A DNA stretch of 64,000 nt from a virus. Taxonomy: Duplodnaviria; Heunggongvirae; Uroviricota; Caudoviricetes. Where the stretch lies: the IMG/VR virus record IMGVR_UViG_2778261571_000004; one strand, 5' to 3'. Both the position numbers and the translations under genes were made by a program. Shown one piece after another: positions 21,218-51,128 of this stretch; positions within the stretch are counted from its first letter, which is position 1; each line of letters starts with the position of its first letter. The notes below the pieces were generated by a model. The model searched no databases, was not told the DNA's origin, and worked only from the letters and a program-made list of their open reading frames with translations.

Positions 21218-22466
21218 AACCACCAAGAATAACACGGTTTTTGACTGGATACCTACGATGTACTGGATAGCCCAATGCGTCTGCACTATGCTCAATGCCA
21301 CCTGTCTTATCCATATCTCGTGTTCCAGGCTTGTAGATGACTTTTTCCAGTGAATCAATCAAATGCTTGCACTTCGGATCGATATACAGCCGGATATCTC
21401 CAGATGCGGTCATCAGCATTCGGTTAACAGCATTAACACGATCCGCAATTGGCGGGTGCTTTTTCGAATAATCGACACGTAAGAATCCCTTCTCTTTGAA
21501 TATGTCGACGTCAGACTCCCCGCGAGCATGTTGGCGATAAGCACCTGCCGGATCTGGAAATACCGTTATCTGTGATTTCCAGCGCCAGAAGCGTCTCTCA
21601 AGCTCATCACAAACCTCTGCCGTGTTAGAGGAAAAGAGCACCAATTCATCAATTGCCCATAGCTCACCATTTGGCTGAGGTTGCAAAATTACTGAAGACA
21701 TCGGGTCAATGTTGAAGTCCTGCCCTACCCATATAGGCAACCGAGGGTTGAACTGAAGCGGTTTTACATGCACGTTACGATCGAACGGGTAGTAAACGCG
21801 CCCGGACATGTTCTCAAAGCTCGCCAGGTACTCCTGAGCGAACGATTTCGGGTCCATATCGTTCTTAGCAGCTTCAATTTCCGCCGTAGGTACAAACGGA
21901 GAATCGGCAGTTACAAACTGCCAGCTCTTCCACTGTCCCTTTCTTTGCAGCTCTACGTTCTGGCCTATAGTCCACAGTTTGTGAAATTCCGAGAAGCCTT
22001 TTGGCGTACCAATGATCAGTGCACCGCCGCGTGTCGATGAAAGAGTAGGTCGTAACACCTTGTACCAGGTGTCAGCCTTCATATCCTGAAATTCATCAAG
22101 CACTACAAAATGCAACGCTACGCCGCGCAGAGTGTCAGGCTTATCAGCACCTTTGAGGGCGATCTCCGAACCGTTCTTCAACACGATTGTCATCGTGGTG
22201 TCGTTCTTTTTCCTAACCCACTTACGAGGCAGAACTTCCTGTAGATCGTCCCACAAAATCTGACGAGCCATCTGGTAAGTAGGAGCGACATACCAGACCC
22301 TTTGCTTTTTTTCCTTTGCCGCCGCACGAATAATAGTGGAGATCGACAACCGGGATTTTCCCCAGCGTCGACCAGCACAAACAACTTTAAATCGATGCGG
22401 AGACTGGAAGACTTTCATCTGTCCAGAATGCAGTTGCACAAGACTGAGCGAGGACGGGATTGCCAT
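21210..22466 (-). CDS. terL: Terminase large subunit
   Basis: Walker A-like CAGRRWGKS, Walker B-like HFVVLDEF, C-terminal nuclease-like region (VGQDFNIDP); 418 aa. Confidence 0.8.
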   Translation of the reverse strand: MAIPSSLSLVQLHSGQMKVFQSPHRFKVVCAGRRWGKSRLSISTIIRAAAKEKKQRVWYVAPTYQMARQILWDDLQEVLPRKWVRKKNDTTMTIVLKNGSEIALKGADKPDTLRGVALHFVVLDEFQDMKADTWYKVLRPTLSSTRGGALIIGTPKGFSEFHKLWTIGQNVELQRKGQWKSWQFVTADSPFVPTAEIEAAKNDMDPKSFAQEYLASFENMSGRVYYPFDRNVHVKPLQFNPRLPIWVGQDFNIDPMSSVILQPQPNGELWAIDELVLFSSNTAEVCDELERRFWRWKSQITVFPDPAGAYRQHARGESDVDIFKEKGFLRVDYSKKHPPIADRVNAVNRMLMTASGDIRLYIDPKCKHLIDSLEKVIYKPGTRDMDKTGGIEHSADALGYPVHRRYPVKNRVILGGSR

Positions 22467-23098
22467 TATTCGTCCTCCCCTTCACTTCCATCATCTGTCG
22501 CATCAAATTCGCTTAGAGCTTCTTCTTCCAACGTCTCAAGCAATTCGTCATCGATGATTTCAGGCTCGTCGTCTTCCTGACGTAATTTCGCCACCTGGGA
22601 AGGCGTAAGCTCACCAAATACCAGGTTCGGAATTTCTTCCTCGTCATTTTCCGCATGATCCATGCCCAATGCTTTGGACGAAACTTCAAAGCATTTTGCA
22701 AGGGTATTACTGGCTCTCTGTAAGCTCTTGAGAGAATCCTCAATCGCCCCTAAAGGCTTACCCTCACGTTTGGCCGTAGTGACTTCGACCATCACCATCT
22801 GCCCCAACGCATACGCCCAGCCGTCATAACGTGTACGACGTTCTTCTATCTTTTCCGCACGGGCTTTAGCGCGAAGCTCTGCGTCAGATTTAAGAGACTC
22901 ACGAACCATCTTCCCAACAGAGTCCGCGCCTTTCTCTAATCCTCGCTTTTTGAAATGTCTGGAGAGTGTTTCACGACGAATGCCGTACTCTTCCTCCAGC
23001 TTTGAGAGTGTATATTCGCCTGACGTCCATTTGGCTTCAGCTTCGGCCCACTCCGCTGGTGTCAGGCGAGTTTTTACCTCGTCTTTTTCGACCGTCAT
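22466..23098 (-). CDS. terS: Terminase small subunit
   Basis: 210 aa, N-terminal HTH-like segment and acidic C-terminus, overlaps terL start. Confidence 0.65.
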   Translation of the reverse strand: MTVEKDEVKTRLTPAEWAEAEAKWTSGEYTLSKLEEEYGIRRETLSRHFKKRGLEKGADSVGKMVRESLKSDAELRAKARAEKIEERRTRYDGWAYALGQMVMVEVTTAKREGKPLGAIEDSLKSLQRASNTLAKCFEVSSKALGMDHAENDEEEIPNLVFGELTPSQVAKLRQEDDEPEIIDDELLETLEEEALSEFDATDDGSEGEDE

Positions 23099-24469: not shown

Positions 24470-24720
24470 CTGCGCTCGATATTGGCATTGATGAAATCCA
24501 GGCGAAGAGACTCCATCGCCCCTACCATGACATACGGGCGCCCGCCGTTATGCCAGCAATCAAGAACACTGCCGTCGTTGTTGATCATCAACAGCGCCAG
24601 GCTCTGGCTTTTTCCTTCTCTGGCGTGCTGAAGTGCTTCTTCCAGCAGGCGGATGACTTCCACGTTGTTGTTATCAGTCTCTTTCGATGGCTTCAGCTCT
24701 ACGATCTTCAAATCAGGCAT
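24466..24720 (-). CDS. Hypothetical protein
   Basis: 84 aa, 4-nt overlaps with both neighbours (operon member). Confidence 0.3.
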   Translation of the reverse strand: MPDLKIVELKPSKETDNNNVEVIRLLEEALQHAREGKSQSLALLMINNDGSVLDCWHNGGRPYVMVGAMESLRLDFINANIERR

Positions 24721-25351
24721 ATTCCACCTTCACGCGTTCTTTGTAGTGCTTGGTGATCTGCATATCCGGGCGCAGCGCGTTCTTCAGGTCTTCGTGAGTC
24801 GTCGCCACCATTACCGTCGCACCAACCTTTCGAGCGGCACGCTGGAGGTTAGATGCCACAACCTGAGCGGTTACACGGTCGAGAACAGCGCCGAACTCGT
24901 CAGCAGCCCACACTTTAGCGCCTGACTCAATCAGTTTGGCAATCTTGAGACGATATTTCTGACCGTCTGACATTTCAGAAGGCTTGCGAACAAACAGATA
25001 TGCATCGTTCAGACCAGCCATAGATAACAACCCAAGCGCATCACTGGTAGTTTTGCCCAGTTGGTCAATGACGTTAACCTCATTATCGAAGGTAAAATCA
25101 TCGATGGAGGCCACAGATAGCCCTTCATCCTTCATCTGGTGTTGCAGCTCGCGCAGCACAACGGATTTGCCGGAACCGGATTGGCCGGTAATGTACACCA
25201 CATCGCCCTGCTTCACTTCCAGCTCCAGATTGTCGTAAAGCGTCCACTCTTTTTCGTCCAGGCCAAGCCCGAACGACTCAGCGATTTCCAACGTGCGCGT
25301 GGTTTTATTTACGCGTGTCTGAAACGATACGTTGATGATGTATTTGCTCAT
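24713..25351 (-). CDS. Orphan ABC-type ATPase (nucleotide-binding domain only)
   Basis: Walker A GQSGSGKS, signature-like MSDGQKYR, Walker B VWAADEFGA, H-loop ATTHED; no transmembrane partner nearby. Confidence 0.6.
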   Translation of the reverse strand: MSKYIINVSFQTRVNKTTRTLEIAESFGLGLDEKEWTLYDNLELEVKQGDVVYITGQSGSGKSVVLRELQHQMKDEGLSVASIDDFTFDNEVNVIDQLGKTTSDALGLLSMAGLNDAYLFVRKPSEMSDGQKYRLKIAKLIESGAKVWAADEFGAVLDRVTAQVVASNLQRAARKVGATVMVATTHEDLKNALRPDMQITKHYKERVKVEYA

Positions 25352-26016
25352 GCAGCCATCTCCCCGGAAGAGATCTTCTCCGCATATGCCACAAATGCGT
25401 CTACCCCGCTTTCTCCCGTCATTTCTTCCATGTGGGCAAGCAAATCACCAACAACAATGGCAGAGCCAGCAGGGAGCGTTTTAAAGCCCAATACGTCGAC
25501 AACACGTACTTCTTCCGCTGCAACTTCACGACTGATCTCGGTGTGTTCATCCTTCTGTCGTTTAGTTTCTTCGCCAAGATCGATAACTAGCGAGTCGGTG
25601 TCCATTTCTTCTGTCATACTGCCAACGAGAACATTCAACTCACGCTCTTCAAAGCCGAAAACCTCGATATCGTCCAGAACAAGCGACTCAAGCTCTTTCT
25701 GTAGCTTAATTGCATCGTAATCAATGCTGGCAAGTCGGTTATCTTCAAGGCGCTTCGCACGAACCTCGTCATCACTGAGATCATCGCGAACAATAACCGG
25801 TACGCGCTCAAGTCCAGCAAAAATTGCAGCCTCACGGCGGCCGTGGCCAGTAATAATTACGTCGTTCTTATCGACCGTAATTGGCTGGTCAAATCCGCGC
25901 TTTTTAATGGCTGCGGCTAGATCTCGGATCTGCTGTTCATCATGCTTTTTGGCATTCATCTCATAGGGAATAAGATCTGCCGGGTCGCGATATACGATTT
26001 CAAACTTTTTGGTCAT
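25348..26016 (-). CDS. ParB/Srx-like nuclease-domain protein 2
   Basis: ParB N-terminal motif ITGHGRREAAIFAGLERVPV; start set at MTKKFEIVY giving TAATG overlap with upstream stop; ORF track 25348-26049. Confidence 0.6.
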   Translation of the reverse strand: MTKKFEIVYRDPADLIPYEMNAKKHDEQQIRDLAAAIKKRGFDQPITVDKNDVIITGHGRREAAIFAGLERVPVIVRDDLSDDEVRAKRLEDNRLASIDYDAIKLQKELESLVLDDIEVFGFEERELNVLVGSMTEEMDTDSLVIDLGEETKRQKDEHTEISREVAAEEVRVVDVLGFKTLPAGSAIVVGDLLAHMEEMTGESGVDAFVAYAEKISSGEMAA

Positions 26017-26714
26017 TACATACGCTCCTTGTAGTAGTCGACCAGCCACACCAGAGCCTCACCAGCGTTCTCCATTTCATTACCGGTGTTAATAGCCTGC
26101 TCTTTGATGATGTTTTTTATGGTTTCTGCAACACGATCTGACGCATCGAAAGTTACTTTGAAGCGCATGGTCTGATGTTCCGCACCCACACGTTCGGTTT
26201 TCTCTCGTTTGTCGGTATCGACAGGCTCATCACTACCACGAGACAACGCCTCCAGTGCTTCAAGGTCGATTGCCGCCTCTTTTGCTAAAACCATCGAGAT
26301 TTCGTCGTCATACGGGGCGATTTCAGACAGTTGATAGTCAAGTTCTGACTGAATTTCTTCAATGAAGCGTTGCAATGCGATTTGGTCGTCTTCACCGTAT
26401 CGCTCGTTGTCCACCAGTGACATCTGTTTAGCTACGACATCGCTAATTTTGCCCACAGAAAGCACCGGAACCGTTGAAATTCCTTGCTCAATAGCAGCAC
26501 GCCAGCGATGTTCGCCGCCGAGGATTTCAAAAAATCCATCTTCAAGTTCACGAGCCAAAATTGGCTTAAAAAAGCCCAATTTTTCGATAGAACCTTTCAG
26601 TTTTTCAAAATTCTGCGCACCAACCGAATTGGTGTTCCAGGTATTCGGGCGAAGGTTGGCAACATCAACCTGCAAAATCGTGATTTTTACATCCATTTTA
26701 TTGCTACAATCCAC
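26016..26714 (-). CDS. ParB/Srx-like nuclease-domain protein 1
   Basis: ParB N-terminal motif ILGGEHRWRAAIEQGISTVPV; acidic C-terminal half. Confidence 0.6.
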   Translation of the reverse strand: MDCSNKMDVKITILQVDVANLRPNTWNTNSVGAQNFEKLKGSIEKLGFFKPILARELEDGFFEILGGEHRWRAAIEQGISTVPVLSVGKISDVVAKQMSLVDNERYGEDDQIALQRFIEEIQSELDYQLSEIAPYDDEISMVLAKEAAIDLEALEALSRGSDEPVDTDKREKTERVGAEHQTMRFKVTFDASDRVAETIKNIIKEQAINTGNEMENAGEALVWLVDYYKERM

Positions 26715-31368: not shown

Positions 31369-31890
31369 ATGGTTAAAGACATCACCTACGGCATACCGGC
31401 TGAAGTCTGGCCGCGAGACTACGAACATGCTGAAAACATACTTATGTTCTGGCGGAAGAACAACATTCCTGTAAGAGTCACGCTTGAAGACGGTCAGGTG
31501 TTTTGCATGTACGTTCAGGGGACAATGCCTTCCCGCAATAAGCTAGATTTATGCCCGCTTCCATATGATAAAGAAAATCGTATAAGACTCCCACTTGAGC
31601 GCATTAGCACAATTGAATCAGGTGTAATCGATGGCATTGCTCGCGAGTTCAAAGGTAGGCTAACAATACATCCAGACTATGTTGACAATCAGCCATCACG
31701 CCGTGACTTTTTTGCGATATGTCGCAAGGCTTATCAAAACGACCAATCTATAAGGGTCTACATGACAGACGGTCGTGAAATAGAAGGGGTGTCAAGAGGC
31801 GTTGATGCTTGCCAGGTCACTCTTAAGTTAGAAGACGGCAGAAAAATACTTGTTTTCTTCGATTGGGTTGAACGAATCCTTCCATTTTAA
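31369..31890 (+). CDS. Hypothetical protein with two beta-rich repeats (weak resemblance to Rof/Sm-like fold)
   Basis: Internal repeat VRVTLEDGQVFCMYVQG / QVTLKLEDGRKILVFFDW; pattern only. Confidence 0.25.
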   Translation: MVKDITYGIPAEVWPRDYEHAENILMFWRKNNIPVRVTLEDGQVFCMYVQGTMPSRNKLDLCPLPYDKENRIRLPLERISTIESGVIDGIAREFKGRLTIHPDYVDNQPSRRDFFAICRKAYQNDQSIRVYMTDGREIEGVSRGVDACQVTLKLEDGRKILVFFDWVERILPF

Positions 31891-31902
31891 ATCTATAAGG
31901 GT

Positions 31903-31930
31903 AATAACCGGCTAAGCCCGGTTATTATTT
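31903..31930 (+). terminator. Rho-independent terminator
   Basis: aataaccggctaagcccggttatt hairpin followed by T-rich run. Confidence 0.5.
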
Positions 31931-32185
31931 TACATGCCATTCATTTAAAACTCTTTCAATGTCACTCTGTATAAATATATAAGGTTAAAAGCCCGAATTG
32001 ATTATTTATTTAGGGAACACCTTCGACGATCTCGCTTTTATTTCTAGGACTTTCATCCCTGCAGAAAATTTAAAAAAAACACTTGCAATCTTTTTTCACG
32101 TATTGATAATTGAACTCGTCGAAAGCGAGCTGGCTAACGACAGTAAAAAATAAATTCATTTTAATTTTTCGTAAGGATGTCCATC

Positions 32186-33114: not shown

Positions 33115-33120
33115 AATCGA

Positions 33121-33143
33121 GCGCCCACTATGGGCGCTTTTTT
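33121..33143 (+). terminator. Rho-independent terminator (second identical copy)
   Basis: gcgcccactatgggcgc hairpin plus TTTTTT. Confidence 0.55.
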
Positions 33144-33167
33144 CGTTTCCAATACTCCCACCATAAC

Positions 33168-33192
33168 GCGCCAATGATGGCGCTTTTTTATT
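33168..33192 (+). terminator. Rho-independent terminator-like hairpin
   Basis: gcgccaatgatggcgc hairpin plus T run. Confidence 0.45.
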
Positions 33193-33604
33193 GTCTTTGA
33201 CTCACTCCAACAACATAAAAATAAGCGCCAAAATAACGCCATAGACGCGCTTTTATATCCTTGTCAGTACATACCCATTACTTAACACATTAACGCGCTT
33301 AAAACGCGTTATATTGCGCTATAGAGTATGGTTAATCATTGGCTTTTAGTCTTGCTATGTGATCCGCGTTTATTTGTCGGCGCGGATCGGCTCTTTGTGT
33401 TGTTTTGTATCCGCTCGCGTATTATGTGCGCGTGATTTTTCACATAATCACACCACTTAATCACATATGTGATTACGCTACGAAAGAAATCTGGATGTCT
33501 CAGGCGACGAAAGTCATCATAATTTTCCCCGCTCACCTGTCCGACAACCGCTGGTTGGATTCCACCAGCTTCCCGATGTTTTTTCTACATAAAGGCGAAT
33601 GCAG

Positions 33605-33694
33605 CCGTTTCCCGAAAAAATCCTGGCCGTTCCCCCGTCGGCTCATGAATACGTTCCTCGCCGCTTCTGAAAATTTCCCTGCGGCAGCTGGTGG
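33605..33694. repeat. Short cluster of about 22-bp direct repeats related to the array at 37572-37712, with adjacent Chi octamer
   Basis: CCGTTTCCCGAAAAAATCCTGG then CCGTTCCCCCGTCGG...; GCTGGTGG at 33687-33694. Confidence 0.45.
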
Positions 33695-36414: not shown

Positions 36415-36726
36415 TCAGGCTATTGCCATCACTGATGCTCTCTGAATCTCTTGCTGGGCCACGCGGTTAACTTCCATCAAAGCCAGTTCGAGCTGATGTT
36501 CCGGCCACATTCTTTGAAATGCCACCCAGCCTTTTCCACGCTGGCGACGAACATTCATTACATAACGAGTAAAGGTGTTTTTATCGAAAGACACCGCTGT
36601 TTCACGGAACAGACGAATAGAGGTTCCATTGGCAACGATGTCCAGCAAAGTTAATTGAGCAACCAGCGCAGGCTTCTCTTTTCTCTTCTGGTCTTTGTCC
36701 AGACCAAGAACCAATGATTTTTTCAT
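36415..36726 (-). CDS. Hypothetical small basic protein
   Basis: Start set at MKKSLVLG with GGAG RBS directly downstream of motif family 2; ORF track 36415-36774. Confidence 0.3.
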   Translation of the reverse strand: MKKSLVLGLDKDQKRKEKPALVAQLTLLDIVANGTSIRLFRETAVSFDKNTFTRYVMNVRRQRGKGWVAFQRMWPEHQLELALMEVNRVAQQEIQRASVMAIA

Positions 36727-37230: not shown

Positions 37231-37571
37231 GTTTTCTTGATGGTGTTATTATCGCAATAACGCAAAGGCGAAAAAGGATTTTATTCCGGTGAATGTGGTT
37301 TTGGCAGTGAGTTTTCAGGTTCAGTACCGAGTACACTTTTTACATTATTCTGATTTAGTGGCCGAAGGTGGCTGGTGGGCAGAATAATCATCTCCCCGAA
37401 AACCTACTGAAATCGATTGTGACCCGTTGGCTGTCTGGCACAATTACGCTGTAACTGGGCATTCAGAGGGAGTCCAACGGTAAGTTAGTCCGCCTACGTG
37501 AGCGCCTCTCTTCTTCCCGCACATTACAGGTGGATAGCCGCAACTCTCCCTCTCGCTATACCGGTACGCCG

Positions 37572-37712
37572 CCGTTCCTGAACCGGCATCGAGCCTTTTC
37601 CCGAAATCCACACAGGCAACTCGACCGTTTCCCTGAAAACCTCCAGCCGTTCCCCGAAGGCAACCCAGCCGTTTCTGTAGCGGGATGCAGCCTTTTCCCT
37701 TATGGACCGGAG
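37572..37712. repeat. Array of six tandem 22-bp direct repeats (iteron-like)
   Basis: CCGTTCCTGAACCGGCATCGAG, CCTTTTCCCGAAATCCACACAG, CCGTTTCCCTGAAAACCTCCAG, CCGTTCCCCGAAGGCAACCCAG, CCGTTTCTGTAGCGGGATGCAG, CCTTTTCCCTTATGGACCGGAG; strict 22-bp register apart from one 9-nt gap. Confidence 0.65.
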
Positions 37713-37859
37713 GCTGACCGTAGGGGTGTTACGGGGGATAAAATCAGGAGTTGAATAAATACGAAAAAGGAGGCGACACCCCTCCTTCCCTCCCCACTTA
37801 TACATACCTGTCTTGTTCGCTATACATGTTGTGTTTTCTTCGTGTTTTATCTGTCTCAA

Positions 37860-38700
37860 CCTCTCTATAGGCGTTAATGCTCACTCCTTCCAGAACGTTC
37901 TATACGGCGACTAATTCTGTTGGTGAATTGGGTGTGTTGTTCTCTCTGTCGGTGTAAATGGTTTCGTTCGTTTTGCGGTGGTTCTTCTATGGGGTGTTCT
38001 CGTCGTTTTGGTGATTGTTCTTCTCCGTCTATGGAGTAATGGCAGGTGGGCGATTGCTTTCGTTATTGTGTTTGAGTTGTTTGTCTGGAGTGTGTGAAAG
38101 GCTTTTGTAGTTATTCGTGTATTGGGTAATGGCGTTTCCCGTGATTGTTATGTTTCGTGTCTTTTGGGGTTGAGAGAAACCTTGCGGTAACAGGCTTCGT
38201 TGGGGTTTCAGTGATTCTGGTGTTTCTTCGCTGTTTGGGGAATGGCGTGTCGTGGGTATCGCGCGTATGAATGTTTTCGGATTGCCTGTGAAAGTTAGGT
38301 TGGTTGTCCGGTAGCCTGGGAAGAAGAGGTGGGTCTTTTCGGTAGCCTGCCATAAAGAGGTTGGTTGTTTTGGGGAATGGCATATGTGTTATTTAGTTGT
38401 TTTGTTATGCCTGAAAATAAGTTGTTTATATGGTTGTGTAACGCAATGGGAGTGATTTTGAGCGTGTGTTTTTGTTGGTAGTGTGTTGGTCGTCTGTGGT
38501 GAAAATTGGACGCTGTGGCGCTGTCTGCTGCGTAGAATTACGGGTATAAGCAGTGATGTGTGAAAACGTCAATTTTTTAGACCAAATCGGGTGAAAGCGT
38601 TGATGTTTCGTTGATCTGTTATTCAGTTGTTTCCTTGATTGTATAAACAACTATAACTTATTGATATTTAAGGGTGTGATTGCAGGTATGGAAGGAGAGT
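37860..38700. other. Non-coding region with extreme GT strand skew and degenerate 100-130-bp repeats
   Basis: About 78 percent G+T on plus strand in sampled 60-mers; recurring words gtaatggc, gggaatggc, cggtagcctg; ORFs here are low-complexity. Confidence 0.5.
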
Positions 38701-38781
38701 AGTGGCGATCAACGGATTCTTATAGAAAAGAATCAAATTGTGACCGCCATTATCAACTGATTGATTTGTTTACTTGTGTAG

Positions 38782-39180
38782 TCAGTTCTCGAAATGAATA
38801 GGGTCAACGTAATGCCGCTCACCGCTTTTACCATTACACAGCACTGTAACTTTCGCCTTTTCACTCCAGGCTGAGTATAGAAAGTTCCCATCAGGTTGAA
38901 CATGGTAACGAGAGAAGTAAACATCGCCGACTGAGGCGTCGAACATGTTCCTATCTTTTTCACTTTGGGCAAGCGAGATGGATATCACCGAATTCCCATT
39001 TGGGGAAACGATTTTAAATTTATTCCCTATATCCATAACAATATTGTAACCAGGTAATTGCTTGTGTGTTTCCGGATCTATTTTCATGCATCGTGGGTAC
39101 ACGATAGTGTTAGGCTCTTCAACTGGCGTGGCATTAGCAGAAAGCACAAAAAATATTAGTGCCAATGGTGCATATTTCAT
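38782..39180 (-). CDS. Putative secreted protein
   Basis: 132 aa with N-terminal signal-peptide-like segment MKYAPLALIFFVLSANA. Confidence 0.4.
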   Translation of the reverse strand: MKYAPLALIFFVLSANATPVEEPNTIVYPRCMKIDPETHKQLPGYNIVMDIGNKFKIVSPNGNSVISISLAQSEKDRNMFDASVGDVYFSRYHVQPDGNFLYSAWSEKAKVTVLCNGKSGERHYVDPIHFEN

Positions 39181-39876: not shown

Positions 39877-41910
39877 TTACTTAACCTGGTGGCCAGGTTT
39901 AGCACCGACATCCGGGCTTAACAGGAAGATATCTTTCCCGCCAGGGCCAGCAGCCATCACCATGCCTTCGGAGATACCGAAGCGCATTTTACGCGGAGCC
40001 AGGTTAGCCACCATAATGGTGTGACGACCAATCAGTGCCTGTGGGTCTGGATAAGCAGAACGGATGCCTGAGAAGACATTGCGTTTTTCACCGCCGAGAT
40101 CCAGTGTCAGACGCAGCAGCTTGTCAGAACCTTCAACAAACTCTGCGTTTTCGATCAGCGCCACGCGCAGGTCAACTTTGGCGAAGTCGTCAAAGGTGAT
40201 GGTTTCCTGAATCGGGTCGTCAGCCAGTGGGCCAGTTACCGGTGCGGCTGTGGCTTTCACTTCTTCTTTGGATGCTTCCACCAGTGCTTCCACCTGTTTC
40301 ATATCGATACGGTTATACAGTGCCTTGAACGGATTCACTTTATGGCCCAGCAGCGGTTGCTGGATACCATCCCAGGTCAGTTCTGTATTCAGGAATGCTT
40401 CTGCACGTTCAGTCAGTTTCGGCAGTACCGGCTTCAGGTACGTCATCAGCACGCGGAACAGGTTAATGCCCATAGAGCAAATCGCCTGCAGATCGGCATC
40501 GCGTCCTTCCTGCTTCGCCACCACCCACGGAGCCTGTTCATCGACATAGCGGTTAGCCAGGTCAGCCAATGCCATGATTTCACGGATAGCTTTACCAAAT
40601 TCGCGGCTTTCCCATGCTTCGCCAATCACTTCAGCGGCATCAGTAAAGGTTTTGTACAGTTGCGGGTCAGCCAGTTCGTTTGCCAGCACGCCGTCAAAAC
40701 GCTTGTTGATAAAGCCTGCATTACGGGAGGCCAGGTTAACCACTTTGTTCACGATATCGGCATTCACGCGCTGAACGAAATCCTCCAGGTTGAGATCGAT
40801 ATCATCAATGCGCGAAGAGAGTTTCGCAGTGTAGTAGTAACGCAGGCTGTCAGCGTCAAAATGATTCAGCCAGGTGCTGGCTTTAATAAAGGTGCCGCGA
40901 GACTTGGACATCTTCGCGCCGTTCACCGTCACATAGCCATGAACAAACAGGTTGGTCGGCTTGCGGAAGTTGCTGCCTTCCAGCATGGCAGGCCAGAACA
41001 GGCTGTGGAAGTAAACGATATCTTTACCGATGAAGTGGTACAGCTCGGCGGTGGAGTCTTTCTTCCAGTATTCATCGAAGCTGGTGGTATCGCCGCGCTT
41101 GTCGCACAGATTCTTGAAGGAACCCATGTAGCCAATCGGCGCGTCCAGCCAGACGTAGAAATATTTGCCCGGCGCGTCCGGAATTTCAAAACCGAAGTAA
41201 GGCGCATCGCGGGAGATATCCCACTGTTGCAGGCCAGATTCAAACCACTCCTGCATTTTGTTTGCCACCTGCTCCTGCAACGCGCCGCTGCGGGTCCATG
41301 CCTGCAACATTTCGCTGAAAGAAGGCAGATCAAAGAAGAAGTGTTCGGAATCACGCATTACCGGGGTAGCGCCAGAAACCACCGATTTCGGCTCGATCAA
41401 TTCAGTCGGGCTATATGTTGCGCCGCAGACTTCACAGTTATCGCCGTATTGATCTGGCGCTTTACATTTCGGGCAGGTGCCTTTTACAAAACGATCCGGC
41501 AGGAACATGCCTTTTTCCGGGTCGTACAACTGAGAGATAGTGCGGTTTTTAATAAAACCGTTCTCTTTCAGGCGAGTATAGATAAGCTCAGACAACTGAC
41601 GGTTCTCTTCGCTGTGCGTCGAGTGATAGTTGTCATAGCTGATGTTAAAGCCTGCGAAATCAGTCTGGTGTTCCTGACTCATTTCGCCAATCATCTGTTC
41701 CGGTGTGATACCAAGCTGCTGTGCTTTCAGCATGATCGGCGTACCGTGGGCATCGTCGGCACAGATGAAATTAACCTCGTGGCCGCGCATTCGCTGGTAA
41801 CGAACCCAGACATCAGCCTGGATGTGCTCCAGCATATGGCCGAGGTGGATTGAGCCGTTAGCGTACGGCAGCGCGCACGTCACCAGAATTTTCTTCGCGA
41901 CTTGGGTCAT
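39877..41910 (-). CDS. metG: Methionine--tRNA ligase
   Basis: 677 aa from [31 protein letters not shown]; HIGH (HLGH) and KMSKS motifs, zinc knuckle CPKC...CEVC, C-terminal tRNA-binding domain; ORF track start at 42039 is an upstream in-frame extension. Confidence 0.95.
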
Positions 41911-42067
41911 AGTAGGCATTACTTCTTTGTAGTGAAAAGGGGCTTGATAGTAACAAAATGGCCTTATGTCTGCCATGTGATAACAGCATTTCTCATAAAT
42001 GATTAAATGTCGTAGCTGGAGTACACTACAAGGCGACAATTGCGCAAATTAAAATAAAGGAGACGGG

Positions 42068-43168
42068 ATGAGCGAGTCCAAATCGCCGGATGCCCTGAGA
42101 GCAATGGTAGCCGGTACGCTGGCTAATTTTCAGCACCCAACCCTGAAACACAACCTGACTACGCTTAAAGCGTTACACCATGTTGCGTTGATGGATGACA
42201 CACTGCATGTCGAACTAATCATGCCTTTCGTGTGGAATAAGCCTTTTGAAGACCTGAAAGAGCAATGTAGTGGTGATCTGCTCCGTATCACTGGCGCAAA
42301 GGCTATCGACTGGAAGCTGTCGTACAACATTGCCACGCTTAAGCGCGTCAAAAACCAACCAGGCATTAATGGCGTTAAGAACATTATCGCCGTCAGCTCA
42401 GGCAAGGGCGGTGTAGGCAAATCGTCCACAGCAGTAAACTTGGCACTGGCGTTGGCTGCTGAAGGTGCGAAAGTTGGTATTTTGGATGCCGATATCTACG
42501 GTCCATCAATTCCAACCATGCTGGGTGCGGAAAACCAACGTCCAACCTCACCGGACGGCACTCACATGGCACCTATCATGTCTCATGGCCTGGCAACCAA
42601 CTCAATTGGTTATCTGGTCACTGACGACAACGCGATGGTGTGGCGTGGCCCGATGGCGAGCAAGGCGTTGATGCAAATGTTGCAAGAAACCTTATGGCCG
42701 GATCTGGATTATCTGGTGCTCGACATGCCGCCAGGCACCGGTGACATTCAATTGACACTGGCGCAAAACATTCCTGTAACTGGTGCGGTTGTGGTAACTA
42801 CGCCGCAAGACATCGCGCTGATCGATGCGAAGAAAGGCATTGTGATGTTCGAAAAAGTCGAAGTGCCGGTACTAGGTATCGTCGAAAACATGAGTGTGCA
42901 TATTTGCAGTAACTGCGGTCATCACGAGCCAATTTTTGGCACCGGTGGCGCACAGAAACTGGCCGAGAAATACAACACGCAGTTGTTAGGCCAAATGCCA
43001 CTTCATATCTCTCTTCGTGAAGATCTGGATAACGGAACACCAACCGTTATTAGTCGTCCAGATAGCGAATTTACGGCTATTTATCGTGACCTCGCAGATC
43101 GCGTTGCTGCCCAAATGTATTGGCAAGGTGAAGTAATACCTGGCGAAATCGCATTCCGCGCAGTGTGA
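42068..43168 (+). CDS. apbC: Fe-S cluster carrier ATPase ApbC/Mrp
   Basis: Deviant Walker A GKGGVGKSS, CxxC motif (CSNCGHHE), divergent from metG with 157-bp spacer as in enterobacterial chromosomes. Confidence 0.95.
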   Translation: MSESKSPDALRAMVAGTLANFQHPTLKHNLTTLKALHHVALMDDTLHVELIMPFVWNKPFEDLKEQCSGDLLRITGAKAIDWKLSYNIATLKRVKNQPGINGVKNIIAVSSGKGGVGKSSTAVNLALALAAEGAKVGILDADIYGPSIPTMLGAENQRPTSPDGTHMAPIMSHGLATNSIGYLVTDDNAMVWRGPMASKALMQMLQETLWPDLDYLVLDMPPGTGDIQLTLAQNIPVTGAVVVTTPQDIALIDAKKGIVMFEKVEVPVLGIVENMSVHICSNCGHHEPIFGTGGAQKLAEKYNTQLLGQMPLHISLREDLDNGTPTVISRPDSEFTAIYRDLADRVAAQMYWQGEVIPGEIAFRAV

Positions 43169-45083: not shown

Positions 45084-46642
45084 ATGAAAATGACAAGTAT
45101 TCAACAACGTGCAGAGCTTCATCGTCAAATCTGGCAAATTGCTAACGATGTCAGGGGTTCGGTCGATGGATGGGATTTTAAGCAATACGTTCTGGGCGCA
45201 CTTTTCTACCGTTTTATCAGCGAAAATTTTTCCAGTTATATTGAAGCCGGTGATGACAGTATCTGTTATGCGAAACTGGATGACAGCGTAATTACTGATG
45301 ACATTAAAGACGATGCCATCAAAACTAAAGGCTACTTCATCTACCCCAGTCAGCTTTTCTGCAACGTAGCTGCGAAAGCAAATACTAATGACAGACTGAA
45401 TGCAGATTTAAACAGCATCTTCGTTGCTATCGAAAGTTCTGCTTACGGTTATCCTTCAGAAGCAGACATCAAAGGTTTGTTTGCTGATTTCGATACCACC
45501 AGTAACCGCCTGGGTAACACCGTTAAAGATAAAAATGCCCGCCTGGCTGCGGTTCTGAAAGGGGTTGAAGGGTTAAAACTTGGTGACTTCAACGAACATC
45601 AGATTGACCTGTTCGGTGATGCCTATGAGTTCCTGATTTCTAACTATGCGGCAAATGCCGGTAAGTCAGGCGGTGAGTTCTTTACACCGCAGCACGTCTC
45701 CAGGCTGATTGCACAACTGGCAATGCATGGCCAGACCCACGTTAACAAAATCTACGACCCGGCAGCGGGTTCCGGCTCACTGTTGTTGCAGGCGAAAAAA
45801 CAGTTTGATAACCACATCATCGAAGAAGGCTTTTTCGGTCAGGAAATCAACCATACGACCTATAACCTGGCGCGTATGAACATGTTTTTGCACAATATCA
45901 ACTACGACAAGTTTGATATCAAGCTGGGTAATACACTGACTGAGCCGCACTTCAGAGATGAAAAACCGTTTGACGCCATCGTATCTAACCCACCGTATTC
46001 GGTGAAATGGATTGGCAGCGATGACCCGACGCTGATTAACGATGAGCGTTTTGCCCCGGCTGGCGTTCTGGCCCCCAAATCCAAAGCTGACTTTGCGTTT
46101 GTATTACATGCACTGAACTATCTTTCTGCCAAAGGTCGTGCTGCGATTGTCTGCTTCCCGGGTATTTTTTACCGTGGCGGCGCGGAGCAGAAAATCCGTC
46201 AGTATCTGGTCGATAATAACTATGTCGAAACCGTGATTTCACTGGCACCGAACCTGTTCTTTGGCACCACCATTGCAGTAAACATTCTGGTGCTGTCTAA
46301 ACATAAAACGGATACCAACGTTCAGTTTATTGACGCCAGCGAACTGTTCAAAAAAGAGACTAACAACAATATCCTGACCGATGCCCATATCGAACAGATT
46401 ATGCAGGTATTTGCCAGCAAGGAAGATGTTGCTCATCTGGCGAAATCTGTCACGTTTGAGACCGTTGTCGCGAATGACTATAACCTGTCGGTAAGCAGCT
46501 ATGTGGAAGCGAAAGATACTCGCGAAATTATCGATATCGCTGAGTTGAATGCAGAACTGAAAACCACGGTCAGCAAAATCGACCAGTTGCGTAAAGATAT
46601 TGATGCGATTGTGGCTGAAATTGAAGGCTGCGAGGTGCAGAA

Positions 46643-46646
<4 letters not shown>
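45084..46646 (+). CDS. hsdM: Type I restriction-modification methyltransferase subunit (type IC, EcoR124-like)
   Basis: 520 aa; SAM-binding and NPPY (NPPYSVKW) N6-adenine methylase motifs; N-terminus matches remembered EcoR124I HsdM. Confidence 0.9.
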
Positions 46647-47890
<1,244 letters not shown>

Positions 47891-48011
47891 TTGACCATTG
47901 CTACCGACCGGGCCACCTTAACACCCGGTCTGTATATAGACTATTTTTTACGCGCCGGAAGTCACTCTTAACGCCCTTCCGGCCCTTGCCAGGCGGCACA
48001 AAGGATGCGCT

Positions 48012-51000
48012 ATGACTCATCAAACACACACCATTGCTGAATCCAATAACTTTATCGTCCTTGATAAGTACATCAAAGCTGAGCAAACAAGCGACAGCTA
48101 CCAGAGCGAATCGGACCTGGAACGTGAACTGATTCAGGACCTGCGGAATCAGGGTTATGAATTTATTTCCGTAAAATCACAGTCGGCAATGCTGTCCAAT
48201 GTTCGGGAACAGCTTCAGAGCCTCAATGGTGTGATGTTTAATGACAGCGAGTGGCGGCGCTTCACGGAGCAGTATCTGGACAATCCCAGCGATGGTATTC
48301 TGGATAAGACCCGTAAAATCCATATCGACTATATCTGCGACTTTATTTTTGACGACGGGCGTCTTGAGAACATCTATCTGATCGATAAAAAGAATCTCAT
48401 GCGCAACAAAGTGCAGATTATCCAGCAGTTTGAACAGGCAGGTTCTCATGCTAACCGTTATGACGTCACGATCCTGGTTAATGGCTTGCCTCTGGTGCAA
48501 ATCGAACTGAAAAAGCGCGGCGTGGCGATTCGTGAGGCTTTCAACCAGATACATCGTTACAGTAAAGAGAGTTTTAACAGCGAAAACTCCCTGTTTAAGT
48601 ATCTGCAACTGTTTGTCATTTCTAACGGCACCGATACCCGTTATTTTGCCAACACAACAAAGCGCGATAAAAACAGTTTTGATTTCACCATGAACTGGGC
48701 GAAATCAGACAACACGCTGATTAAAGACCTCAAAGACTTTACCGCTACCTTTTTCCAGAAACATACTCTGCTGAATGTTCTGGTGAACTACAGCGTGTTT
48801 GACAGTAGTCAGACGCTACTGGTGATGCGACCGTACCAGATTGCCGCCACCGAGCGCATTCTGTGGAAAATTAAGAGCTCCTTTACAGCGAAGAACTGGT
48901 CAAAACCGGAAAGCGGTGGGTATATCTGGCACACTACCGGTTCTGGTAAAACCCTTACCAGCTTTAAAGCCGCGCGTCTGGCAACAGAGCTGGACTTTAT
49001 TGATAAAGTCTTCTTTGTGGTCGACAGAAAAGACCTCGATTACCAGACCATGAAGGAATATCAGCGTTTTTCGCCAGACAGCGTCAACGGCTCGGAAAAT
49101 ACCGCAGGCCTTAAACGAAATCTGGATAAGGACGATAACAAAATTATCGTCACTACTATTCAGAAACTCAATAACCTGATGAAAGCAGAAAGCGACCTGC
49201 CTGTATATAATCAGCAAGTGGTGTTCATATTTGATGAATGCCACCGCAGCCAGTTTGGAGAAGCGCAGAAAAACCTGAAGAAGAAATTCAAACGCTATTA
49301 TCAGTTTGGTTTTACCGGCACCCCTATTTTCCCGGAAAACGCCTTAGGCTCAGAAACAACCGCCAGCGTATTTGGTCGTGAATTGCATTCGTATGTAATT
49401 ACCGATGCGATTCGTGACGAAAAAGTGCTCAAATTCAAGGTGGACTACAACGATGTGCGGCCACAGTTTAAGTCTTTAGAGACAGAAACTGACGAGAAAA
49501 AACTAAGTGCGGCTGAAAATCAGCAGGCGTTTCTTCATCCCATGCGTATTCAGGAAATCACGCAATATATTCTGAATAATTTCCGCCAGAAAACTCACCG
49601 TACCTTCCCTGGCTCAAAAGGTTTTAATGCTATGTTGGCAGTGAGCAGCGTGGATGCCGCGAAAGCCTATTATGCGACGTTTAAACGGTTACAAGAAGAA
49701 GCCGCTAATAAATCGGCTACCTATAAACCGCTGCGTATTGCGACAATCTTCTCCTTTGCCGCTAATGAAGAACAAAATGCCATTGGTGAAATTTCCGATG
49801 AAACTTTTGATACCAGCGCAATGGACAGCAGTGCTAAAGAGTTTCTGGACGCTGCAATTCGTGAATATAACAGCCATTTTAAAACTAACTTTAGCACCGA
49901 CAGTAACGGTTTTCAGAACTACTATCGTGATTTAGCCCAGCGGGTTAAAAATCAGGATATCGATCTGTTAATTGTCGTTGGGATGTTTTTAACCGGCTTC
50001 GACGCTCCAACATTGAACACGCTATTCGTCGATAAAAACTTGCGTTTTCACGGCCTGATGCAGGCATTTTCCCGCACCAACCGTATTTATGATGCAACTA
50101 AAACCTTCGGTAATATCGTCACTTTCCGGGATCTGGAACGCTCAACCATCGATGCCATAACGCTGTTTGGTGACAAAAACACCAAAAATGTAGTGTTAGA
50201 AAAGAGTTATGCAGAGTATATGGAAGGCTTTACTGATGCTGCTACAGGTGAAGCTAAACGCGGCTTTATGGCAGTAGTTTCAGAACTGGAACAACGGTTC
50301 CCTGACCCTGCCAGTATTGAAAGTGAAAAAGAGAAGAAAGACTTCGTTAAACTGTTTGGCGAATACCTGCGTGCCGAGAACATCCTGCAAAACTATGATG
50401 AATTTGCCACGCTGAAAGCCCTGCAACAAATCGATCTTAGCGATCCTGTTGCGGTAGAAAAATTCAAAGAAGAACATTATGTGGATGATGAAAAGTTCGC
50501 TGAATTGCAAACGATTCGTCTCCCTGCTGAACGCAAGATTCAGGATTATCGTTCTGCCTATAACGATATTCGTGACTGGCAGCGCCGCGAGAAAGAAGCT
50601 GATAAAAAAGAAAAATCAACCACTGACTGGGATGACGTGGTTTTTGAGGTCGATTTGCTGAAGTCTCAGGAAATAAACCTGGATTATATCCTTGGACTGA
50701 TTTTCGAACACAACAGACAAAATAAAGGCAAGGGCGAAATGATCGAAGAGGTCAAACGCTTAATTCGTTCAAGCCTGGGGAACCGGGCGAAAGAGGGCCT
50801 GGTGGTCGATTTTATTCAGCAAACGAACCTGGATGATTTACCAGACAAAGCCAGCATCATTGACGCGTTCTTTACCTTTGCTCAACACGAACAGCTACGT
50901 GAAGCAGAAGCGTTGATTAAAGAAGAAAATCTCAATGAAGAGGCGGCGAAACGCTATATTCGCACGTCTTTAAAACGCGAATACGCCACCGAAAATGGCA

Positions 51001-51128
51001 CAGAATTAAACGAGACATTACCAAAACTTAGTCCGTTAAACCCGCAATATAAAACGAAAAAACAGACGGTTTTCCAGAAAATCGTCACGTTTATTGAAAA
51101 GTTCAAAGGAGTAGGTGGGCAGATATAG
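48012..51128 (+). CDS. hsdR: Type I restriction endonuclease subunit
   Basis: 1038 aa; SF2 helicase motifs (TGSGKT, DECHRS) and N-terminal nuclease region; length equals EcoR124I HsdR. Confidence 0.9.

Follow-up and report, generated by a model that had tools for sequence, protein, structure and literature searches.

A conserved array of direct repeats at the head of a non-coding region in SSU5/pHCM2-type phage-plasmids

The repeat array and its genomic setting

We analysed a 64,000-nucleotide stretch of DNA (hereafter the window) that belongs to an SSU5/pHCM2-type phage-plasmid of E. coli. The queried stretch is 97% identical to E. coli plasmids of 94-128 kb, such as plasmid A of strain D9 (NZ_CP010153.1), and its matches were to plasmids only, with no chromosomes among them. 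The annotation of the related plasmids comprises terminase, portal, capsid, tail, nucleotide-metabolism and replication genes, together with a RepB-family initiator, a ParA-like ATPase and toxin-antitoxin pairs, and the gene products of the element include RNase HI, a 5'-3' exonuclease, a ligase and DnaE. In the E. coli lineage of the phage-plasmid, a full-length host-like metG (methionyl-tRNA synthetase) and apbC occupy positions 39877-43168 of the window and are followed by a type I restriction-modification system at 45084-51128. Upstream of the terminase genes, on the minus strand at 24713-26714, lie genes for two adjacent ParB_N-domain proteins and a small ABC-type ATPase; in a comparison of lineages A and E, this ATPase (87% identity) and the 296-aa protein next to it (80%) rank with the best-conserved proteins.

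The array studied here, array 1, forms the left end of a 1.55-kb stretch (37231-38781) that is unannotated in RefSeq. Database records for the region are either blank or filled with spurious ORFs, as in the SSU5 and Cyrano records, which annotate ORFs over the array. The features of the locus are collected in Table 1.

Table 1 Features of the array locus and its surroundings in the window.
Feature	Position	Strand	Remarks
Terminator-like hairpins	33119-33432		GCGCC..GGCGC with T-run; shield array 2 from plus-strand transcription
Convergent Chi pair around array 2	33562-33694		CCACCAGC at 33562-33569 (-), GCTGGTGG at 33687-33694 (+)
Array 2	33605-33672	+	Cores at 33605 and 33627; degenerate units near 33651 and 33662
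Lone strong core match CCTTTTCCA	36530-36538	+	16 bits, PWM scan
Chi octamer upstream of array 1	37371-37378	+	One of 16 in the window
Array 1	37572-37712	+	Six 9-bp cores, CCKTTYCCC
Conserved block right of array 1	37700-37830		GGAGGCTGACCGTAGGGG..GTTACGGGGGATAAAATCAGGAGTTGAATAAATACG..CCCCTCC..CCCACTTATAC
Terminator-like hairpin	37764-37790	-	z = -2.9 in the E. coli lineage; not conserved in SSU5
Rest of the non-coding region	37850-38790		Plus strand G+T-rich, many conserved blocks
Second repeat family, GGKWAATGGCR	38033-38251		Three copies here, up to six elsewhere; irregular spacing of ~90-110 bp
AT-rich TGTTATTYAGTTGTTT repeats, 13-mer-like	38384-38402, 38614-38632		0.7-1 kb right of array 1
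Operator-like palindrome GAAAACAWSTTGTTT, copy in the region	38413-38427		In all lineages
Palindrome GAAAACAWSTTGTTT, positions in the window	23137, 23164, 28352, 30517, 31841, 34234, 35833, 36736, 37222, 38413, 39729, 39778, 53306, 54035

The six cores of array 1 start at 37572, 37594, 37625, 37647, 37669 and 37691, the last ending at 37699. An earlier note on this DNA had described six contiguous 22-bp units; the array is real, as the pattern count and the six plus-strand cores show, but with start-to-start spacings of 22, 31, 22, 22 and 22 bp the units are phased rather than strictly contiguous. The pattern CCKTTYCYS occurs 11 times on the two strands of the window, and six of these matches are the plus-strand cores of array 1. 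Since 7.1 matches are expected per 128 kb of strand, or about 0.007 per 130-nt stretch, chance cannot account for the six found together here. Beyond the 9-bp core the units share a weak preference for a preceding CAG and nothing more, with unit 3 (CCGTTTCCCTGAAAACCTCCAG) the best conserved. Tandem Repeats Finder reported nothing at array 1 because the conservation is limited to the core. The degenerate units that the same note had placed on each side proved weak, TCCCCGAAAACCT at 37393-37405 being the sole candidate.

The Chi octamer upstream of the array, to which attention had also been drawn, is genuine, but we attach no special significance to it. The window holds 16 copies of GCTGGTGG against 1.6 expected, and the whole 114-kb related plasmid (D9) holds 28 against 2.6, an enrichment of about 11-fold that equals the density of the E. 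coli chromosome. As Chi is enriched over the whole plasmid, its nearness to the array carries little information.

Conservation of the array across lineages

A distant-mode search found the array region in 714 plasmids from at least ten enterobacterial genera, among them Klebsiella, Escherichia, Enterobacter, Salmonella (pHCM2), Citrobacter and Cronobacter. The region is also present in phages SSU5 and Cyrano (pLF82) and in several Klebsiella phages. In the most distant matches the alignment shrinks to positions 37538-37803 of the window, covering the array and some 60 bp more. The array is found in 244 complete E. coli genomes, each time on plasmids; the large-terminase gene was found in 216, by a stricter megablast search than that used for the array. 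A 62-kb derivative, apparently without most of the head/tail module over the first 50 kb examined, retains the array region with 96.5% identity. The earlier note had named absence of the array from homologous elements as evidence against its reading; the array is present in essentially all of them.

Core positions are stable in most lineages. Relative to unit 3, the cores stand at offsets of -53, -31, 0, 22, 44 and 66 in E. coli, SSU5, pHCM2, Enterobacter and Citrobacter alike. Klebsiella plasmids have four to five cores, and another lineage has four, one contig of which is without exactly one 22-bp unit. When E. coli and SSU5 are aligned colinearly, 50 of 54 core positions are identical (93%) against 49 of 87 spacer positions (56%; Fisher p = 3e-6). 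The Klebsiella ozaenae plasmid CP027615.1, a divergent form termed lineage E, agrees in synteny, in the 1.5-kb gap and in the core sequence, but its core spacings are irregular (13, 15, 6 and 28 bp).

Yersinia pestis pMT1 shares the backbone of the family and keeps array 2, described below, with its neighbouring 160-aa gene. In pMT1 an IS1541 junction (L182 7700-9700) stands in place of array 1, the G+T-rich region and the genes as far as nrdB. Because pMT1 replicates without array 1, the array is dispensable for RepFIB-driven replication.

A degenerate two-core pattern run against 186k genomes returned mostly chance matches in GC-rich genomes, and two Kluyvera relatives were the only others. 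In an IMG/VR pattern scan the array flanks of all returned loci matched the SSU5-type lineages found in the other comparisons.

The array is non-coding and silent in a lysogen

We considered whether the repeats could be part of a non-coding RNA or of a protein-coding gene, or a product of chance or assembly, and find this highly improbable. In its favour are the ORFs that overlap the array, annotated in the SSU5 and Cyrano records, and the minus strand of the adjoining region, which would give an unstructured, C-rich RNA. However, neither core spacing, 22 or 31 bp, is divisible by three, so that successive cores fall in all three reading frames, and no frame is open over the array in all lineages. 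By tblastn, the overlapping ORFs and two ORFs of the adjoining region have amino-acid identities of 31-50%, whichever strand is read, which is lower than the DNA identity; a genuine neighbouring gene reaches about 70% in the same comparison. The earlier note had suspected that the ORFs at 37524-37859 (-) and 37530-37754 (+) were artefacts, and their lack of conservation across lineages bears this out; nor do the repeats lie within any conserved gene of the relatives, the other finding that it had said would speak against it.

An Rfam scan (E <= 1) gave no relevant match to a structured-RNA family, and the minimum free energy (150-nt windows against dinucleotide shuffles) had z ~0 on both strands over the array and the G+T-rich part. 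Where the gap ends on the right, two windows reached z = -2.6 and -3.5 on the minus strand. Published RNA-seq of an LF82 lysogen gives CYRAN_103, a spurious ORF of the C+A-rich part, no more than the floor value and CYRAN_104, an ORF over the array, barely more than that, while the flanking CYRAN_102 is expressed (PMC9928086, S1 Table). The array region is thus transcriptionally silent in the LF82 lysogen. A sigma-70 promoter scan found no convincing promoter next to array 1. The occurrence of the array in hundreds of independent assemblies counts against chance or an assembly artefact.

The adjoining conserved region

Array 1 heads a conserved non-coding region of ~1.4 kb with a pronounced G+T skew. 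Over a part of ~900 bp the plus strand has a GC skew of +0.4 to +0.58 and an AT skew of about -0.5, and the G+T skew is kept in SSU5, pHCM2 and Klebsiella. No conserved ORF was found between 37850 and 38790. The region holds a second repeat family and AT-rich repeats (Table 1), and RTCAACG boxes stand at its right end. GGKWAATGGCR, the second family, looks like the array core read on the opposite strand, with a single difference (GGGGAATGG compared with GGGGAACGG). Directly beside array 1 we saw neither a DnaA box nor an AT-rich unwinding element, and the whole-genome GC-skew profile of a related plasmid follows gene orientation and gives no origin signal.

The palindrome GAAAACAWSTTGTTT, one copy of which lies in the region, has 21 matches in the window at ~13 loci, against about one expected. 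Several copies that we checked lie shortly upstream of the ribosome-binding sites and start codons of minus-strand genes, and GAAAACAWSTTGTTT is probably the operator of a global repressor of the phage-plasmid. By-eye resemblances to a DnaA box, IHF, KOPS, sigma-54, Tus/Ter, XerCD/ArgR, P1 parS box and PurR sites were dropped as unsupported.

A second array and isolated sites

The same core recurs in a second, co-oriented array, array 2, which lies 4 kb upstream of array 1 in the window and 1.5-4 kb from it across lineages. Array 2 is present in all lineages examined, pMT1 included. It occupies a convergent intergenic gap just past the 3' end and terminator of the conserved 160-aa gene, whose product has no recognisable DNA-binding fold. 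To its left runs a series of three to five terminator-like hairpins, kept even in the divergent lineage E (L179 10535-10876). The convergent Chi pair around array 2 is kept in most lineages examined, the left octamer being missing in pHCM2 and the right one in SSU5 and pMT1; the distance of the left octamer varies between lineages.

Between the two arrays lies a variable cassette of small minus-strand genes, 1.5-4 kb long, and each array stands upstream of a minus-strand promoter-like site. A PWM scan of a whole related plasmid placed the sites of at least 15 bits in the two arrays and at one position between them, all on one strand. The intervening site of the window, CCTTTTCCA, falls inside a minus-strand gene and may be a chance match. 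Pfam, PHROGs and PDB sequence searches with the flanking small proteins returned no function.

At 31369-31890 on the plus strand, 1.7 kb from array 2, a gene encodes a 173-aa protein that matches Pfam Flag1_repress (FljA, repressor of phase-1 flagellin; E = 1e-80). It is present in all lineages, with 36% identity in lineage E, and its C-terminal part has a weak Hfq-like match. Other repeat clusters, apart from the Rep iterons, are the TAATGGC/GATGGCA family of the G+T-rich region, a cluster of GCGCTTTT hairpins and a TATAAGG cluster at 31749-31984; TATAAGG, with six matches against 4.6 expected window-wide, is not enriched.

Replication and partition genes of the element

The earlier note had remarked that no initiator gene adjoins the array. 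Within the window this is true, but the element has a RepB-family initiator outside it, at 70011-71225 of D9, and this is its only Rep-family gene. At least 15 copies of the iteron GTATGCTGTCAGCGGT flank this gene in a P1-like layout; they are unrelated to the array, and the core CCKTTYCCC is absent there. With iterons of its own at RepB, the plasmid origin is accounted for elsewhere. We therefore rejected array 1 as the origin of the plasmid-prophage, given the RepB-family initiator with its unrelated iterons and the absence of array 1 from pMT1.

A further copy of the motif lies at a replication operon. The 114-kb relative has just four exact copies of the 8-mer CCGTTTCC, two in array 2 and one in array 1; the fourth copy, outside the window, precedes by about 75 bp the start codon of a 241-aa gene, the first of a DnaB-like helicase/primase operon. 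A promoter-like -35/-10 pair, read by eye, follows directly downstream. The site is conserved in position in the SSU5 and Klebsiella lineages and degenerate in lineage E, and three 8-mers of this type are expected by chance in the plasmid. The order of 241-aa gene, helicase and primase is kept even in Pseudomonas phage nickie (28% identity). The 241-aa gene has no internal origin-like repeats, and its product retains only 52% identity in lineage E, although the core has not changed there.

Upstream of the operon we also observed a conserved AT-rich palindrome, CCTGCTTCTGTATATA..TATACGGAAGCAGG, with a single CCGTTTCCA (L003 7551-7647; D9 ~106550-106650), and a comparable palindrome lies upstream of the homologue in phage nickie (L185 4826-4905). 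As read from its sequence, this palindrome could be an alternative candidate for a lytic origin.

The partition genes, which encode a type Ib-like pair of a 222-aa ParA and a 117-aa partner, map to 107.6-108.6 kb of D9, and the two arrays to 32.9 and 36.0 kb. The ParA/117-aa pair is missing from pMT1 and from Yersinia plasmids. An AF2 model of the 117-aa partner had a pLDDT of 72 and added no functional assignment.

Discussion

The sequence evidence strongly supports the view that array 1 consists of direct repeats that bind protein at the level of the DNA. This much of the earlier note, which had offered a replication origin, a partition centromere or a multi-site operator, stands firmly. Comparison with known systems indicates how far each of them fits. 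The iteron clusters of P1 oriR/incA, R6K gamma and RK2 oriV have the same co-oriented phasing of ~22 bp, and the R6K gamma origin contains seven 22-bp iterons. As here, such clusters may be multiple and separated by kilobases, and may include a site at a replication-gene promoter. The phased, co-oriented repeats keep the same offsets in four lineages and become irregular in lineage E. However, iterons conserve 17-22 bp per unit against 9-12 bp here, and the array has no adjacent Rep_3/RepB-type initiator, the element's own RepB using unrelated iterons. We saw no DnaA box, and no AT-rich unwinding element lies directly against the array; the AT-rich 13-mer-like repeats stand 0.7-1 kb to its right (Table 1).

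Split phage origins, such as P4 ori/crr and SPP1 oriL/oriR with its G38P-G39P-G40P proteins, offer a second likeness, having two separated clusters of one short motif. As here, the candidate initiator gene may lie directly upstream of that for a DnaB-type helicase, with one cluster far away. Unlike those origins, the present element has a single site and no cluster beside its candidate initiator gene, and the resemblance is read from sequence. Type Ib and dispersed centromeres (the pSM19035 omega heptads, TP228 parH, pB171 parC1/parC2 and the four sites of N15) likewise consist of short direct repeats, with several arrays per replicon and a small basic partner of ParA, as found here. They differ in being typically built of contiguous 4-11-bp repeats, against the wider 22-bp spacing here, and the present arrays lie ~42 kb from the par operon, whose promoter is without the core.

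A remote partition centromere would make the arrays the parS/parC sites of the 222-aa ParA, with the basic 117-aa partner, a putative ribbon-helix-helix protein, predicted to cover the phased repeats and thereby link the plasmid to ParA. An element that encodes ParA and a small partner must have a centromere somewhere, no repeat array adjoins the par genes in any lineage, and the CCGTTTCCC arrays are the main conserved direct-repeat clusters besides the Rep iterons. The putative DNA-reading segment of the partner, I-K/Q-SRTMS-x-EDE, and its helix F-x-RSDVIRAAI are invariant in all lineages, even where the protein is 48% identical, which matches the invariance of the 9-mer. The partner gene occurs in 797 plasmids and array 1 in 714, nearly the same set, and pMT1 is without both. 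Short direct repeats are typical of type Ib centromeres, dispersed centromeres occur in the phage-plasmid N15, and the shielding of the arrays from transcription would fit. Against this, type Ib centromeres normally abut their operon and double as its operator, whereas the arrays are distant from the par genes, overlap no par promoter, and share no core with the highly conserved promoter region of parA. Moreover, pMT1 keeps array 2 without the 117-aa protein, and a centromere leaves both the helicase-primase promoter site and the 1.4-kb region unexplained. We consider a centromere the main rival to the reading preferred below, though rather unlikely on balance. An operator or enhancer function, in which a regulator such as the FljA-like protein would bind both arrays and loop out the cassette, or would activate or repress nearby promoters and that of the helicase-primase operon, strikes us as improbable. 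It draws on the variable cassette that the arrays bracket, the minus-strand promoter-like site downstream of each array, the extra site just ahead of the -35/-10-like pair of the 241-aa gene and the nearby FljA-family gene. But the gap that holds array 2 is convergent and rich in terminators and is no promoter position. Array 1 and the closest start codon are separated by 340-480 bp, strong sites keep to the array locus, and the apparent global operator is a different, palindromic motif. FljA itself is described as an mRNA-binding repressor, which counts against such a role, and its homologue has diverged in lineage E while the core has not. Highly improbable, too, is a packaging (pac) site, where headful packaging would begin with attachment of the small terminase to the repeats. 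Known pac sites often hold short repeated motifs, and no protein is better conserved between lineages than the large terminase (91%); however, known pac and cos sites lie in or beside terS, and the array is about 14 kb from terS/terL, with the TerS-like gene at 22466-23098. The TerS-like protein is 57% identical in lineage E, and the array persists in the 62-kb derivative that, judged by its first 50 kb, apparently lacks most of the head/tail module.

We tentatively prefer to read array 1 as binding sites for a protein of the replication module, which would form a lytic-cycle origin or its control locus; we regard this as possible rather than probable. One sequence-specific DNA-binding protein of the phage-plasmid would recognise each CCKTTYCCC core and, with sites phased by two or three helical turns in most lineages, the bound proteins would line up along one face of the helix. 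Array 1 would act jointly with the co-oriented array 2, sharing its motif with the site upstream of the 241-aa gene. The most economical candidate for the binder is the 241-aa protein, which may serve as both origin binder and autoregulator. Array 1 and the 1.4-kb strand-asymmetric region may then constitute a second replication origin, or a control locus, used in lytic growth, silent in lysogens and separate from the RepFIB-type plasmid origin.

Several observations point towards replication-module sites. The conservation of the core and the stable phasing, including the loss of one whole unit, favour protein sites, and the confinement of strong sites to the two arrays and one position between them, on the same strand, favours this reading. 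So do the unrelated iterons of the RepB-family initiator and the replication of pMT1 without array 1. The position-conserved CCGTTTCC at the helicase/primase promoter suggests a link to replication, as does the constant place of the 241-aa gene ahead of the helicase and primase genes; the 241-aa gene is without internal repeats that might act as an origin of its own. The array heads the conserved non-coding region with its AT-rich 13-mer-like repeats and its G+T skew, a skew that is expected of a strand that is often single-stranded, and this argues for an origin. The silence of the region in the lysogen, together with its copy of GAAAACAWSTTGTTT, is consistent with a lytic origin under repressor control, and terminator-like hairpins shield both arrays from read-through, which also favours the reading. 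We count the RNase HI, 5'-3' exonuclease, ligase and DnaE of the element in favour of a lytic origin as well.

Other observations weigh against it. Some 40 kb separate the arrays from the genes for helicase and primase, and the promoter link depends on a single 8-9-mer of which three are expected by chance. The 241-aa protein has diverged in lineage E while the core has not, and the irregular spacing in that lineage argues against a phased origin. Neither a DnaA box, an AT-rich unwinding element nor a convincing sigma-70 promoter was found directly beside the array, the lytic origin could instead be the AT-rich palindrome upstream of the 241-aa gene, and the 160-aa neighbour of array 2 shows no recognisable DNA-binding fold.

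A more specific proposal, which we think unlikely as it stands, is a lytic origin of unusual build. Its 9-bp-site arrays would be split and remote from the initiator operon, and the ~1-kb region would be opened by strand displacement or an R-loop after a repressor-controlled promoter fires, with the same protein autoregulating the operon through the promoter site.

In the literature on SSU5, pHCM2, iterons, origins and packaging we found no description of the array, of array 2 or of the skewed region. Phased direct-repeat arrays are a familiar kind of element; this particular one, its split layout and the helicase-primase link are new. The analysis also draws attention to ~1.4-1.5 kb of conserved non-coding DNA, blank in RefSeq or occupied by spurious ORFs in other records. 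Phage-plasmids of the SSU5/pHCM2 type, which can carry resistance genes, are frequent in clinical E. coli, Klebsiella, Enterobacter and Salmonella. Array 1, array 2 and the helicase-primase promoter site together form the clearest uncharacterised cis element of the family, and the arrays offer a concrete handle on either its lytic origin or its missing centromere.
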